Shown here piece after piece: positions 47,168 to 54,270 of a DNA stretch of 64,000 nt. This DNA is from a virus (Duplodnaviria; Caudoviricetes). Numbering within the stretch: position 1 is the first letter of the stretch; each line of letters opens with the position of its first letter. The translations under genes were made by a program, and so were the position numbers. The stretch spans positions 197,681 through 261,680 of IMG/VR virus record IMGVR_UViG_3300013121_000017, one strand, 5' to 3'. The notes below the pieces were generated by a model, which had not been told where the DNA came from, did not search any database, and worked only from the letters and a program-made list of their open reading frames with translations.

Positions 47168-47455
47168 ATGGTTGCGAACGTAAAGGTCGTTGCGAAGCCA
47201 ATTTCGCACAACCCATCCCGCGATGAGCGGGACCGGAACTTCAAATTCCTCTTCACGGCATTCAAGCGGGCAGTGGCCCAGTCTGGCGTGCTGAAGGAAT
47301 ACAAGAAGCATGAAACCTACGAAAGCAAAGGACAGAAGCGTCGTCGCAAGAAGCGAGAATCCATGATCGCCATTCTGAAGGGGAAGATGCGTGAAAGCTT
47401 CCTCGAACGGAAGGGCAAGTCAAAACCACCCCGGAAAGAGAGGGACGTTGAGTAA
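47168..47455 (+). CDS. rpsU: Ribosomal protein bS21
   Basis: FKRAVAQSGVLKEYKKHETYESKGQKRRRKK. Confidence 0.85.
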   Translation: MVANVKVVAKPISHNPSRDERDRNFKFLFTAFKRAVAQSGVLKEYKKHETYESKGQKRRRKKRESMIAILKGKMRESFLERKGKSKPPRKERDVE

Positions 47456-47741
47456 GAAACAGGACATCGTCAGCTACAGCATGCCCTTGGAGATGCAGCA
47501 GAAGCTGAAGCGGGTCAAAGAGAAGAAGGGCTACAAGTCGGTCAGCAAGCTGATCCGCGACCTCGTAGACAAGTACGTTTGCGAGGACGACGACGTGACG
47601 CCTGTCGTTCTGAAAGTCCCTGCCCAACTGCGGAGCGATCCCAAAGCCCTGTTCCAGTGGCTTACCAATCGCATTCCCGCTGTGGTGTCGGCGTTGACGA
47701 CGCCAAGCAATGAAATCAAGGCGGAATCCACGGATGAGTAA
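47448..47741 (+). CDS. Ribbon-helix-helix DNA-binding protein
   Basis: IVSYSMPLEMQQKLKRVKEKKGYKSVSKLIRDLV; TTG start with SD. Confidence 0.7.
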   Translation: MSKKQDIVSYSMPLEMQQKLKRVKEKKGYKSVSKLIRDLVDKYVCEDDDVTPVVLKVPAQLRSDPKALFQWLTNRIPAVVSALTTPSNEIKAESTDE

Positions 47742-48213
47742 GATCGTTCCCGTTCCCGAAATACCACGGGTCACTAACGAAGTGGCCTATACTGACCCTA
47801 TCGCCGTTTACAGGAAGTTCAACACCCTGGAGAACGTCTGTGTTCGTGAGAAGGGGATCGGCCTGTGTGCCGTTCAGATCGGGCTGCCTGACAGGATGTT
47901 CGTGACTAGAAACCAAGATGGGTCTTTCCGCTACTTCATCAACGCCAGATACGAAGCTGTCGGCGAAGAGCAGTTTACAAGTTGCGAAGGATGCCTCTCG
48001 CTCCCAGGTCGAGCTTTTCTTGTTTCCAGACACAGGATCGTCCGGGTGATTGGGACGGAAATGCTTGTGGGAGAGGGAGTTGTGTTCAAGGATGTGGATT
48101 TCGAGGTAGATGATCCGCTCTACACTGCTGTTTTCCAGCATGAGATCGATCATTGCTACGGAATCATGATTGACGAGATAGGCCGGGAGGTTCGTGTCCG
48201 TCCGGCGGCGTGA
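47734..48213 (+). CDS. def: Peptide deformylase
   Basis: GIGLCAVQIG, EGCLS, QHEIDH. Confidence 0.93.
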   Translation: MSKIVPVPEIPRVTNEVAYTDPIAVYRKFNTLENVCVREKGIGLCAVQIGLPDRMFVTRNQDGSFRYFINARYEAVGEEQFTSCEGCLSLPGRAFLVSRHRIVRVIGTEMLVGEGVVFKDVDFEVDDPLYTAVFQHEIDHCYGIMIDEIGREVRVRPAA

Positions 48214-49002: not shown

Positions 49003-49357
49003 TCAAGAGTGGTCGCCCGAGATGGACCTACTCTTCATCTCGGGCGACTTCTTCGAGCAGGCCGTGCCGCGCGACAAGGAATACCTGCTCAAGTATTTCG
49101 ACACAAAGATCCAGCGACAGTTCGTCCGCTACTGCCTTCTCTTCAGATCTTCCAAAAACTTCACCGATCACACTGGATTGAGAGTGCAGCCTCTTTGGCT
49201 TCGCAAGCTCAACAAGAAGCTTGCGGCCCTGGAAGAGGCTCACGCTGTCGCCAAGAAAGCCTTTGACACTGAGACGGTTGCCAAGCTCGAAAGCGGGAAG
49301 TACCGCATCAGAAGACGCGGTCGTCCCCCTAAAAATTCATGCCACGATTCTAAATAG
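48986..49357 (+). CDS. Hypothetical protein
   Basis: 123 aa; C-terminal RRRGRPPK AT-hook-like motif. Confidence 0.65.
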   Translation: MSSTHDQEWSPEMDLLFISGDFFEQAVPRDKEYLLKYFDTKIQRQFVRYCLLFRSSKNFTDHTGLRVQPLWLRKLNKKLAALEEAHAVAKKAFDTETVAKLESGKYRIRRRGRPPKNSCHDSK

Positions 49358-49366
49358 TGGCATGAA
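49336..49366 (+). promoter_or_regulatory. Start-codon-sequestering hairpin with late promoter in its loop
   Basis: TTCATGCCAC-gattcTAAATA-GTGGCATGAA; ATG 49362 lies in the 3' arm. Confidence 0.7.
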
Positions 49367-49844
49367 CAAACAAGAGAAAGGGCGGGCCGCTGCTGCCAGA
49401 TTCAAGAAGCGGAATCCCGACAAGGTTCGACAATACAACAAGGAAACAAAAGGTCGGCGGCTTCAGGCTGGGCTGTGCCGCACATGCGGCAAGCTCCCTT
49501 ACATTGAGGAATGCACTCAATGCCAGTTGTGCATCGACAAAGCCAAGGAACGCTACCGACGTAACAAGAGGATCGTTTACGAGCATTACGGGCGTGTTTG
49601 CGTGTGTTGTGGAGAGGCCGAAGAGTCGTTCTTGTCAATCGACCACATCAACAACGACGGTGTGGATCGCCGCAAGGTACACGGAAATGGTAGCAATTTC
49701 TACACATGGATCATCGCCAATCAATACCCGGATGACTTGCAGATTTTGTGCATGAACTGTCAATGGGGGAAGAGGACGCATGGCCGGTGTCCTCATCAAG
49801 ACCCGGAATCACCTGCGTATCTTGGGAAGCGGGATGATACATAG
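49362..49844 (+). CDS. HNH-family (His-Me finger) endonuclease
   Basis: CVCCGE..FLSIDHINNDG..LQILCMNCQWGK. Confidence 0.85.
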   Translation: MNKQEKGRAAAARFKKRNPDKVRQYNKETKGRRLQAGLCRTCGKLPYIEECTQCQLCIDKAKERYRRNKRIVYEHYGRVCVCCGEAEESFLSIDHINNDGVDRRKVHGNGSNFYTWIIANQYPDDLQILCMNCQWGKRTHGRCPHQDPESPAYLGKRDDT

Positions 49845-49849
49845 TTACT

Positions 49850-50077
49850 ATGGCACTACTGACCTTCAAAGACTGGCGCAAACAGCAAAACGAATCCAGC
49901 CCCCAGACTCGCTTGATGAAGGGGCCGTACCGCAAACTGTCGGCATCGCCCTTCTCCCACTCGACTCCTTGGCCCCACATCGTCAAAGACTTGCTCGATG
50001 ACGACGGCAACCTCAAAGAGGGCCGAAAGAAGAAGAAGAAGAAGCACAAGAAGGGTGGCCCGTCAAAAAAAGCGTAA
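49850..50077 (+). CDS. Putative internal head protein, short basic form
   Basis: TACATA 6 nt upstream; MALLTFKDWRKQQNE; poly-Lys C-terminus. Confidence 0.7.
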   Translation: MALLTFKDWRKQQNESSPQTRLMKGPYRKLSASPFSHSTPWPHIVKDLLDDDGNLKEGRKKKKKKHKKGGPSKKA

Positions 50078-50343
50078 GCCCTGCACCTCACTTCGATGCG
50101 GGGCTTGACCAGTGGGTTCAAGCGGCTGATAATTTAGAGAAGTCGCTGCGGAAGCTGAAGGACATCCGCGATAAACACAAGGCGAAGCCGGAAGACGAGA
50201 AGTCTACGGACAAGCCGAAATCGCGCACACAAGATCAGAAGCCGAAGCAGAAGGACGAGAAGCCCGAAGACCGGGAAAACGACACGGATGACGACGAAAT
50301 GGATGACGATGAAGAGGAGGATGACACTGACACCGAAAGCTAG
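50065..50343 (+). other. Probable programmed -1 frameshift site and 90-codon extension frame
   Basis: A_AAA_AAA at 50065-50071; 10-bp hairpin 50076-50106; start-less -1 frame open to TAG 50343. Confidence 0.6.
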
Positions 50344-51145: not shown

Positions 51146-51928
51146 ATGGGATGCAGCAACAACACGGGGACCGCTTTCCCCACCGTACCAAACAACAACT
51201 GCCCGGACAGCGGCGGATGCCCTCCGGGCCGCTGCCCTGACTTCACTATTCGTCGCCATGACACGAAGCCTCCTTTCAAGGTGGGCATCGAGGATTGTGA
51301 CGGCCCGATGGACTTGGCGAATCTCGTCGTTGAGTTCAGCATGTGGGCCAAGGCGAAGCTGAAGACTGCGATAACAACCACTTCAACTTCTTTGTCTTTT
51401 GCCGACAAGATCGGCTTTGACCAAGTCATGGTCGGTGATATACTGATTCTTGACCGTGCTAGAAGTCCCGAACACATGAAGGTGATCGGTTTCGATGAGG
51501 ACAACTTCCTCGTCTTCGTCCAGCGGGGAGTGAACGGCACGACCGTCAGCAACTGGAAGAAGGGGAACGGCGTCCGGGTGATGAAGGCTTTCAGCAACCC
51601 GGCCCTATCGGAGCTTGTCCTTCAGGACATCGTTCAACTCGATGGAACAACTCAGAAGGACGTTCTTACGGACAGCTTCCTCGTTTACGAGTGGCAGCCG
51701 TCCGACACCTGTCTGCCGGGGTGCTATTGGGCCGAGTTCAAGCTCTTGGCCCTGAAGACCGAAGAAACAGAACCAGAGGATACGACCGACTCGACCTATA
51801 CCGCGACGATGACTCCCTCCCAATACGGTTGCAAGCTGGGTGAAGGGGTAGAATGGGTTAGGCGATTCCCGGTCAGCGGCGAGGGTTACTTGATCAGGGT
51901 CGAGGACTCGCCAACAGCGGAACTTTAA
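51146..51928 (+). CDS. Virion structural protein with BppU-like (baseplate upper) domain
   Basis: FTIRRHDTKPP..GPMDL..VYEWQPSDT..PG.YWAEF; TATATA 5 nt upstream. Confidence 0.65.
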   Translation: MGCSNNTGTAFPTVPNNNCPDSGGCPPGRCPDFTIRRHDTKPPFKVGIEDCDGPMDLANLVVEFSMWAKAKLKTAITTTSTSLSFADKIGFDQVMVGDILILDRARSPEHMKVIGFDEDNFLVFVQRGVNGTTVSNWKKGNGVRVMKAFSNPALSELVLQDIVQLDGTTQKDVLTDSFLVYEWQPSDTCLPGCYWAEFKLLALKTEETEPEDTTDSTYTATMTPSQYGCKLGEGVEWVRRFPVSGEGYLIRVEDSPTAEL

Positions 51929-51937
51929 GGAGGAGAG

Positions 51938-53602
51938 ATGCCGAGTACAGCCGAATTCCAAATCGAACGTCTCGAAAACGCGGGCATCAAGCATGTCTTC
52001 GCCGTACCCGGCGATTTCTGCCTCGGCATGTGCAAGAGGATTTCCGAGAGCAAGATCAAGCTGGTGGTGTGCGCGGACGAGGCGACCGCAGGTTTTGCTG
52101 CCGACGCCTACGCCAGAATCCACGGCATCGGCTGCGTCCTTACGACGTACAACGTCGGCACGCTCAAGCTCTGTAACGCCATCGCGGGAGCTTACGCCGA
52201 GCGGTCCCCCGTCATCGTCCTGGCGGGTTCGCCGGGGATGACGGAACGTCACGAAGACTTCAAGCTGCATCACATGGTTCGCGGTTTCGACATGCAGCAG
52301 AAGATCTTCAAGCAGTTGACGTGTGAAGCGGTTGTCCTTGACGACCCCGTCAGAGCCGGGTATAAGATCGATGAGGCTATGGAGAAGATGTACTGGCATC
52401 GTCAGCCGGTGTATATCGAGATCCCGAGGGACGTGGCGGAAATGCGGCTCAAGTACGACGTGTACCAGCAAGGCACTCCGAACGCCCCGTTGTCGAACCC
52501 GGATGCAATGGTCGAAGCCTTGAACGAGGCAGCCGAGATGCTCCGCGCCGCAGTACGTCCGGTGCTGTTGGCCGGCGTGCAGATCCAGCGGTTCGGCCTT
52601 GGCAAGCAGTTGATCCGCTTCGCGGAAAAGAACGGCTTGCCCATCGCAACGACGCCTCTTGGCAAGTCGGTGGTCGATGAGCGGCACGACAATTTCCTGG
52701 GCGTCTACGGCGGTGCTTGCACCGAGCCGGTCGTCAAGGAGTACATCGACCACAGCGACTGCGTGGTCATCCTGGGTGAGATGCTCACGGACATCACGCT
52801 CGGCTTCCAGAAGCCGCCCTTCAAGAACGACAAGACGATTTTCGTCACCGCCGAAGGTCTGAGTATCTGCAACCACTCTTATCGCGGGGTCAGCTTCACG
52901 GAGTTCTGCACGGAGTTGTTCAAGAACACGACGCTGAAGCACGAAGTACCGAAGCTGAAGATGCCCGAGAAGCCGGAATACAAGGCCGGGGCCGGCGTCA
53001 AGATCACCGTGCAACGCTTCTTCGACAAGGTCGAGACGATCCTGTCCGAGAATACCGTCGTGTGTGCCGACATCGGTGAGAGTCTTTTCGGTGCGTTGAA
53101 CATCAACACCAACGGCGGCAGTTTCATCTGCCCCGCACAGTACACCAGCATGGGTTTCGCGATCCCCGCCGCACTCGGCGTTGGACTGGCGAAACCCAAC
53201 GTCAGACCCATCGTGTTGGTGGGTGACGGCGCGTTCCAGATGTCCTGCCAGGAACTGGGCGTGATCGTCAAGCAAGGTCTGAACCCCATCGTGTTCGTGT
53301 TGAACAACGGCGGGTACGGAACCGAACGTCTGATCATGGACGGACCTTTCAATGACATCCCGGCGTGGGAATACCACAAGATCGTGGATGTCATGGGCGG
53401 GACTGGCTTCAAGGTTACGACCGAGGACGAACTGGAAGTGGCAGTCCAAGCCGCGCTCCAGAGCAAGAAACTTACGGTGATCAACGTCGTAGTTGATCCG
53501 AAGGATATGTCTTGGTCCCTCAAGCGTGCAACGGAGGGTTTCAAGGGTAGCCGTGTGGCGGCTGAGAATGCCGACGCCGGCAATTTGAATGGAAGGAAGT
53601 GA
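51938..53602 (+). CDS. TPP-dependent 2-keto-acid decarboxylase (pyruvate/indolepyruvate decarboxylase family)
   Basis: AVPGDF, DEATAGFAADAYAR, LHH motif, SMGFAIP, GDGAFQMS..NNGGYGTER. Confidence 0.9.
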   Translation: MPSTAEFQIERLENAGIKHVFAVPGDFCLGMCKRISESKIKLVVCADEATAGFAADAYARIHGIGCVLTTYNVGTLKLCNAIAGAYAERSPVIVLAGSPGMTERHEDFKLHHMVRGFDMQQKIFKQLTCEAVVLDDPVRAGYKIDEAMEKMYWHRQPVYIEIPRDVAEMRLKYDVYQQGTPNAPLSNPDAMVEALNEAAEMLRAAVRPVLLAGVQIQRFGLGKQLIRFAEKNGLPIATTPLGKSVVDERHDNFLGVYGGACTEPVVKEYIDHSDCVVILGEMLTDITLGFQKPPFKNDKTIFVTAEGLSICNHSYRGVSFTEFCTELFKNTTLKHEVPKLKMPEKPEYKAGAGVKITVQRFFDKVETILSENTVVCADIGESLFGALNINTNGGSFICPAQYTSMGFAIPAALGVGLAKPNVRPIVLVGDGAFQMSCQELGVIVKQGLNPIVFVLNNGGYGTERLIMDGPFNDIPAWEYHKIVDVMGGTGFKVTTEDELEVAVQAALQSKKLTVINVVVDPKDMSWSLKRATEGFKGSRVAAENADAGNLNGRK

Positions 53603-54270
53603 TGCACAACAACCAGTCCCAATCTCAGGGTAACGCACGCCCGGCTCCTCAGCAGGGTGGTCAGAGGCCACAGGGTTACAGACCTTATCAGGGAGGAGGC
53701 GGTAGCAGCAGCTACCAGGGCAATCGCCCGTGGCAGCGTCGTGACGAGCGTCCCCAGGAGAAGGGCCGGCATCGTCTGAACGGCAACATCCGTGTACCGG
53801 AAGTTCGCGTCGTTCAGGATGGCAAGCAGTTGGGCATCATGAAGACCTTCGAGGCACAGCGTCTCGCCGACGAAGCCGGCCTCGATCTGGTCGAGATCGC
53901 CCCGCAGGGCAATCCGCCCGTCTGCTCGATCATGGACTACGGCAAGTTCAAGTACGAAGAAAAGATCAAGCAGAAGGACCAAGAACGCAAGCAGCGTGAA
54001 GGCACACAGTCGCTCAAGGAGATCAGGCTCACGCCATCTATCGGCGACCACGATCTTGAGGTCAAGGTCAAGCACGCCAAGGAGTTTCTGGAAGATGGCA
54101 AGCGAGTGCAGATCTCCGTCAAATTCCAGAAGCGTCAACTGAACCACAAGGAGATGGGCTTCGACGTGGTCAAGAAGTTCATCGCCGCCCTCGGCGACAA
54201 GGTGACGGTTGAGTCCGAACCGCGTCTCGACGGCAACAGGCTGAACTGCCGTGTCGCTCCCAAGCAGTAA
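53602..54270 (+). CDS. infC: Translation initiation factor IF-3 with low-complexity N-terminal extension
   Basis: LNGNIRVPEVRVV, LDLVEIAP..PPVCSIMDYGKFKYE, KEIRL.P.I..HDL..K. Confidence 0.95.
   Translation: MHNNQSQSQGNARPAPQQGGQRPQGYRPYQGGGGSSSYQGNRPWQRRDERPQEKGRHRLNGNIRVPEVRVVQDGKQLGIMKTFEAQRLADEAGLDLVEIAPQGNPPVCSIMDYGKFKYEEKIKQKDQERKQREGTQSLKEIRLTPSIGDHDLEVKVKHAKEFLEDGKRVQISVKFQKRQLNHKEMGFDVVKKFIAALGDKVTVESEPRLDGNRLNCRVAPKQ

Follow-up and report, generated by a model that had tools for sequence, protein, structure and literature searches.

The phage frameshifts known so far almost exclusively concern genes for tail chaperones, capsid proteins or tail tubes. Where capsid and tail proteins are extended by frameshifting, in-frame and out-of-frame versions coexist among relatives; phage T4 lacks the G-T shift (PMC5009743), for which T4-like phages use separate fused genes (PMC10885494). 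The internal proteins of T4 are small and basic and contact DNA through Lys (PMC3012670); no report of frameshifting in these proteins was found in the literature. In the insertion sequences IS1 and IS3, 72% of the slippery heptamers are A_AAA_AAG or A_AAA_AAA, and hairpins begin 4–10 nt later (PMC4066793). In E. coli, the former heptamer is shiftier than the latter (PMC5009743).

We analyzed a candidate locus of this kind in a 64,000-nt stretch of viral DNA (hereafter, the window), which is the final 64 kb of a virus record of 261,680 bp. A T4-type major capsid protein (Gp23 match, E 8e-88) and a prohead protease, a gp21 homologue (Peptidase_S77 match, E 6e-29), are encoded in this genome; the source virus is a T4-like jumbo phage. 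Judging from sequence comparison, we consider it about 85% probable that the gene beginning at 49850 undergoes programmed −1 ribosomal frameshifting of the dnaX/IS3 architecture, with tandem slippage of tRNA-Lys. The mechanism is textbook knowledge; the gene family was previously undescribed and is unnamed. Our literature search found no description of this gene or slip site, and a search of cultured phages gave no member of the family.

Layout of the locus and its surroundings

The following features were distinguished at the locus (window coordinates, strand, basis in brackets):

49838–49843, +: late-promoter-like motif TAnATA, 12 nt 5′ of the start codon (orthologue comparison)
49850–50077, +: ORF1, 75 aa, short basic zero-frame product (ORF list; profile homologues)
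49850–49894, +: N-terminal leader F-x-x-W ... E15, similar to the T4 capsid-targeting sequence (W9 and E15 invariant in the clade)
50024–50053, +: Lys/Arg-rich stretch, mostly AAG codons, just 5′ of the slip site (sequence)
50052–50058, +: SD-like element AGGGTGG (published motif and spacing rule, PMC4066793)
50065–50071, +: putative slippery heptamer A_AAA_AAA, in register as TCA AAA AAA (invariant in 11 of 11 loci)
50071–50343, +: −1 frame extension of 90 codons without a usable start (homology to the in-frame proteins P0003 and P0092)
50072–50077, +: one sense codon and the zero-frame stop (same layout in 11 of 11 loci)
50076–50106, +: predicted stimulatory hairpin with a G-C core at 50078–50104 (folding; IS3-family rules)
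50092–50169, +: conserved amphipathic helix domain LDQW ... ADNLEK (purifying selection; P0003 model)
50270–50340, +: Asp/Glu-rich tail, lineage-specific (locus comparison)

ORF1 ends with TCA AAA AAA GCG TAA and encodes 20 Lys and Arg versus 7 Asp and Glu residues. The Lys/Arg-rich stretch before the slip site was kept in kind in all homologues and would perhaps affect ribosome pausing. The −1 frame was open from 50002 to its stop at 50343, and its first ATG, GTG or TTG lay about 75 codons beyond the slip site; the ATG of the next gene followed 5 nt past the stop. The trans-frame product comprised 164 aa. An earlier interpretation of the same DNA (the sequence-only reading) had listed the ORF, the A-run, the stem, AGGGTG and the open −1 frame, and all of them were recovered in place; its description of the −1 frame as lacking a usable start, staying open for 90 codons and ending 5 nt before the next gene was likewise accurate. 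Gene callers do not recover the shift: all annotations seen either omitted the −1 half or assigned it a wrong start.

The stem consisted of 10 bp including one G-U pair (−15.9 kcal/mol), with z values of −4.5 for the trimmed 31-mer and −1.9 to −2.4 for untrimmed 44–45-nt windows. It had been placed 4 nt after the run in the sequence-only reading, a spacing that counts two terminal A-U pairs; the conserved G-C core starts after a 6-nt spacer. An intrinsic terminator was rejected as the identity of this hairpin, since no U-tract follows and selection acts on the frame that contains it. A sigma-70-like match at 50105–50133 was also discarded, being near chance and within conserved codons.

Near ORF ends, the genome held 18 slippery heptamers; only the one described here combined a strong hairpin with a −1 frame that is long and has no start. 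The plus strand of the 261,680-bp genome contained a single run of seven A, located at the slip site. None of the 317 Lys-Lys pairs in ORFs of at least 200 aa formed A_AAA_AAA, and AAG accounted for 77–79% of Lys codons.

With frameshifting, most ribosomes would read the two AAA codons and one more codon before the stop, yielding the 75-aa basic protein. Some ribosomes, paused by the hairpin 6 nt downstream, would slip both tRNA-Lys back by one base and continue into the conserved helix domain and the variable tail, yielding 164 aa in the window. Pausing would perhaps be helped by the SD-like element and the poly-Lys nascent chain. Since A_AAA_AAA is the weaker of the two heptamers in E. coli, the long form may be scarce. 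Seventeen tRNA genes were located outside the window, at 145650–162948 of the genome (G000:C1), for Leu, Ser, Tyr, Phe and only one Ile(TAT); no tRNA-Lys was found among them.

The direct neighbours of the gene were ORFs of no known family or HNH-like, and small unknown ORFs surrounded it. The reading of this locus as something other than a tail-chaperone frameshift agrees with the absence of a gpG/gpT family or fold match and with these neighbours. Translation genes were encoded close by (47168–48213 and 53599–54270), namely bS21 (PF01165), peptide deformylase (PF01327 match found in relatives) and an IF3-like protein, the latter with 50% to a Planctomycetota MAG as the best database match and 45–47% to many phyla. 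The HNH-like ORF directly 5′ of the gene (49350–49844) contained Cys and His-Ile-Asn motifs recognized by eye and had no Pfam match above the cut-off. L007 and L008, two close relatives, lack it at this position, and it is probably a mobile endonuclease insertion.

Conservation of the slip site, hairpin and −1 frame

For ORF1, 79 homologues were obtained by profile; all profile searches together yielded about 90. When either half was used directly to scan contigs of viruses and metagenomes, only L001 was recovered; the relatives came from the profile searches and look-up by protein. The window protein belonged to a well-supported branch (100/97; 18 rows, 70 columns), in which 16 rows end with x-Lys-Lys-x. 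Only this branch support and the nesting of P0003 were used from the tree, the ‘slipEnd’ label being the clade motif itself and its clustering score circular. The DNA of ten of these was taken from Logan, JGI, ENA and IMG/VR assemblies, which together with the window gave 11 distinct loci. In each of the 11, an in-register A_AAA_AAA is followed by exactly one codon and a stop, while the −1 frame encodes the same domain; the identity of the codon and of the stop differed. As the same junction was present in all 11 loci from separate assemblies, an assembly or homopolymer error in one continuous gene is excluded for practical purposes. Ten other phages, assembled separately in Logan, JGI and ENA, show the same 7-A junction, and this settles the homopolymer doubt attached to the sequence-only reading. 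The seven A were also present in near-identical phages whose Logan and JGI assemblies are separate (L007, 4 contigs; L008–L010, 3 contigs), and the window’s own 75-aa protein was found on 3 contigs. Independent assemblies therefore refute such an error.

Differences across the loci within the −1 domain comprised 405 synonymous versus 93 non-synonymous single ones, with 0 stops, whereas the other two frames over this domain contained 18 and 34 stops. The −1 frame is under purifying selection. The conserved addition in all 11 loci was a helix of about 30 residues, and in the structure model of P0003 the helix domain formed one long helix (pLDDT > 90). The −1 extension of the window was homologous to the C-terminal half of the natural in-frame proteins P0003 and P0092. 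The Asp/Glu-rich tail was found in five of the 11 loci (window, L007, L008, L011, L012) and was missing from L001, L013, L014, L015, L017 and L018, in which the −1 tail was short and non-acidic. The conserved gain is therefore the helix, and not the acidic tail that the sequence-only reading took for the switched-on part. No match to the frameshift protein was found in Pfam, PHROGs, the ESM Atlas, cultured phages or BFVD folds.

Codon usage at the slip site differed from that of the rest of the same genes. The slip-site Lys codons were AAA in 22 of 22 cases versus 46 of 134 (34%) for the other Lys codons, and the codon before the heptamer ended in A in 11 of 11 loci versus 13 of 132 other Ser/Pro codons. 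Given their shared ancestry, the loci amount to about six or seven independent lineages; the rough p of 3e-6 for this constraint counts six lineages only. Between the run and the domain, seven different lengths occurred (29 to 59 nt); they differ by multiples of three, so that the phase was kept.

The hairpins were evaluated by rules published for 271 IS3 elements (PMC4066793): a start 4–10 nt after the motif, G-C closure, at least 7.6 kcal/mol and an excess over the neighbourhood of at least 0.09 kcal/mol/nt. With the best hairpin chosen per locus, which favours a pass, ten of 11 loci qualified (spacer 5–7 nt, −11 to −20 kcal/mol, excess 0.32–0.55), versus neither of the two in-frame controls under the same procedure. 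The exception, L018, had no qualifying hairpin, but its run comprised 9 A. Averaged over the loci, the energy minimum along the gene fell on the folded segment that begins right after the run. The qualifying hairpins, all at a spacing of 5–7 nt, were built from unrelated sequences. By our reading of the alignment, a deletion took out the old 5′ arm of the stem in the subgroup of the window protein; the bases homologous to the 3′ arm of L015 serve there as the 5′ arm of a new stem, whose spacing is unchanged. From the alignment of the loci, RNAalifold derived neither a consensus fold nor formal covariation, since the stems vary in length and register and do not align by sequence; we do not count this against the hairpins. 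Rfam gave no match.

The same long protein would also arise from programmed transcriptional slippage, in which the polymerase adds one A and the 8-A transcripts are translated in a single frame. The run is of pure A, three loci have 8–9 A, with L018 combining 9 A and no hairpin, and there is a precedent in dnaX of T. thermophilus on 9 A (PMC1088944). However, the run comprised exactly 7 A in 8 of the 11 loci, and most bacteria select against slippage at about 9 (PMC1088944); the stem 3′ of the run stands at ribosome spacing, would not yet be transcribed with the polymerase on the run, and is lost in the in-frame forms. Transcriptional slippage is therefore improbable as compared with ribosomal frameshifting.

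The published SD-like motif was identified 6–17 nt upstream of the run in nine of the 11 loci by the rule of PMC4066793, being absent from L008 and L018; it was scored against the published list. In the window, AGGGTG (50052–50057) lies 7 nt 5′ of the A-run, and GGTGG ends 6 nt before it. Three of the nine loci encode the element with different amino acids, which hints at selection at the RNA level. At the same time, the spacing is at or under the optimum of 9–14 nt (PMC5009743), and Gly-Gly codons yield the motif by default. The SD-like element proposed in the sequence-only reading is thus a plausible stimulator: motif and spacing rule hold in nine loci, while the spacing is short and the motif partly forced by its codons.

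Taken together, the heptamer in 11 of 11 loci, the qualifying hairpin in ten of them and the selected −1 frame uphold the earlier proposal of programmed −1 frameshifting with 75-aa and 164-aa forms; the fixed ratio of the two forms assumed there goes further than this comparison. The slip site and hairpin, whose conservation in relatives that proposal had suggested to check, were thus both found to be conserved.

Natural in-frame forms and two-gene outgroups

Two in-frame forms were detected. L002 (P0003, 189 aa) is a fusion produced by an 8-nt deletion and nests within the branch. In L019/L020 (P0092), the run comprises 8 A, and translation continues uninterrupted across a junction that resembles the trans-frame product predicted for L013; the hairpin and the middle (most) of the first domain are absent. 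An 8-A relative had been expected by the sequence-only reading to speak for a single continuous ORF; L019/L020 is such a relative, but its hairpin and the greater part of its first domain are gone, and it speaks for the predicted fusion product and not for an error. Both in-frame forms look derived from the frameshift state.

The in-frame fusion L002 keeps an in-register A_AAA_AAG with a weak hairpin (719–770; −6.8). A −1 shift at this heptamer would meet a stop after 13 codons and thereby give back a short form; such a layout would be inverted and resemble that of dnaX.

The existence of two in-frame forms, one of them different by a single A, would also be expected if the split alleles were broken copies of a fused gene arising at a DNA mutation hot spot or by phase variation. 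Against this explanation, the split is in the −1 phase at all 11 loci and never in +1, and split forms outnumber full-length fusions within the clade by about 16 to 1, only one such fusion having been found. The −1 frame is under strong purifying selection and without stops in loci whose first halves are only 50–80% alike, L002 came into frame by an 8-nt deletion and not by a change of run length, and the hairpin tracks the split state. A mutational origin of the split alleles is thus very unlikely.

In the outgroups L004 and L006, two genes overlap in the same −1 phase, and both start at an ATG of their own; the second gene of L004 also has its own leader. Re-initiation of the −1 frame at a non-standard codon overlapping the stop would correspond to exactly this layout, and CTG or TTG was present at the overlap in four frameshift loci, with an ATG six codons later in L011. 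The overlap codon, however, was GTA, CTA or ATA in seven of the 11 loci including the window, which has no ATG, GTG or TTG before the conserved helix. The SD-like element lies about 16 nt from the overlap codon, a strong stem would cover the start, and the invariant heptamer would be left unexplained. We regard two separately started genes as scarcely more credible than a mutational origin; −1 frameshifting is preferred to both.

Further variants were found around the branch. Outside it, L005 and about nine further proteins were fusions, and L103–L105 contained the first half only; the next open frame in L103–L105, from about 1120, was an orthologue of window 51146–51928, with no ATG near its beginning in the translated stretch. 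P0040 extended six residues beyond the usual stop. In P0049 and P0057, the first domain was joined to unrelated C-termini, that of P0057 being an S-adenosylmethionine synthetase fragment and possibly the result of a chimeric contig. The family keeps all states: two genes, frameshift, fusion and first half only.

In the frameshift loci, the second domain, a separate gene in the outgroups, would borrow the promoter, the start and the capsid-targeting-like leader of the first. It is conceivable, although somewhat less than an even chance, that the −1 frameshift of the clade evolved from two genes that were translationally coupled and each targeted to the capsid separately; a single leader would then load two internal head proteins at a set ratio.

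Leader, predicted head location and known systems

The capsid-targeting sequence of T4 is cut after Glu by the prohead protease. In the clade studied, W9 and E15 of the leader were invariant, and cleavage after E15 is probable from the pattern. Leader-like starts were found in 30 ORFs of this genome versus 7 at a control offset. In 15 of the 16 orthologous loci, TAnATA preceded the ATG by 10–14 nt, versus 22 of 145 (15%) confident starts genome-wide, and it may represent a late promoter with a short or no leader. Genome-wide, 14 of the 30 ORFs with the F-x-x-[WFY] ... E leader had TAnATA within 16 nt upstream, which suggests a large set of late, short-leader cargo genes. Because of the T4-like leader and the late-promoter-like motif, both the short and the long form are probably internal proteins packaged in the head, and the capsid targeting proposed in the sequence-only reading is reasonable as a prediction. 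The division of roles is more tentative: the short form might be a basic DNA-contacting peptide comparable to the internal proteins of T4, and the long one a minority form adding an oligomerising or scaffold-binding helix.

The locus provides a well-supported case of frameshifting in an unannotated family of probable head-internal jumbo phage proteins. Its natural versions, whether in frame, split or truncated, along with ten distinct hairpins that share one spacing, are a ready test set for the origin of a −1 signal, as well as for which features matter for A_AAA_AAA and whether phages set cargo stoichiometry by recoding. If the reading is true, a family with all states and a rebuilt hairpin is a natural record of the gain and loss of a recoding signal.

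Among the described systems, the signals of IS3/IS1 and of E. coli dnaX are alike in having a tandem-Lys heptamer and a hairpin 4–10 nt downstream; the SD-like element upstream, optional in those systems (PMC4066793, PMC5009743), has a plausible counterpart here. The −1 product is the longer fusion, which also holds for IS3 elements, whereas the shift in dnaX shortens the product. Both IS3 and dnaX concern transposase or polymerase genes, unlike the phage gene, and the dnaX heptamer ends in G, while that of the phage ends in A. With gpG/gpGT of lambda, the locus shares the setting of a phage late gene with a short zero-frame product and a longer −1 fusion; in contrast, it has no sequence or family match (Pfam, PHROG) to them, and no tail tube or tape measure gene was seen next to it.

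Frameshifts in T7/T3 gene 10 and in the phages Lactobacillus A2 and Listeria A118/PSA likewise extend a virion protein at its C-terminus by an accessory domain. These capsid and tail extensions, however, place an Ig-like domain on a major shell or tube protein, whereas here a single helix is added to a 75-aa leader-tagged peptide. T4 IPI–III, with the targeting sequence MKTYQEFIAE, are similarly small and basic with an N-terminal aromatic-x-x-aromatic ... Glu leader, and the T4 setting is matched by the T4-type capsid and prohead protease in the phage genome; they differ in that no sequence family match links them to the phage proteins, the packaging and cleavage of which are predicted from sequence.
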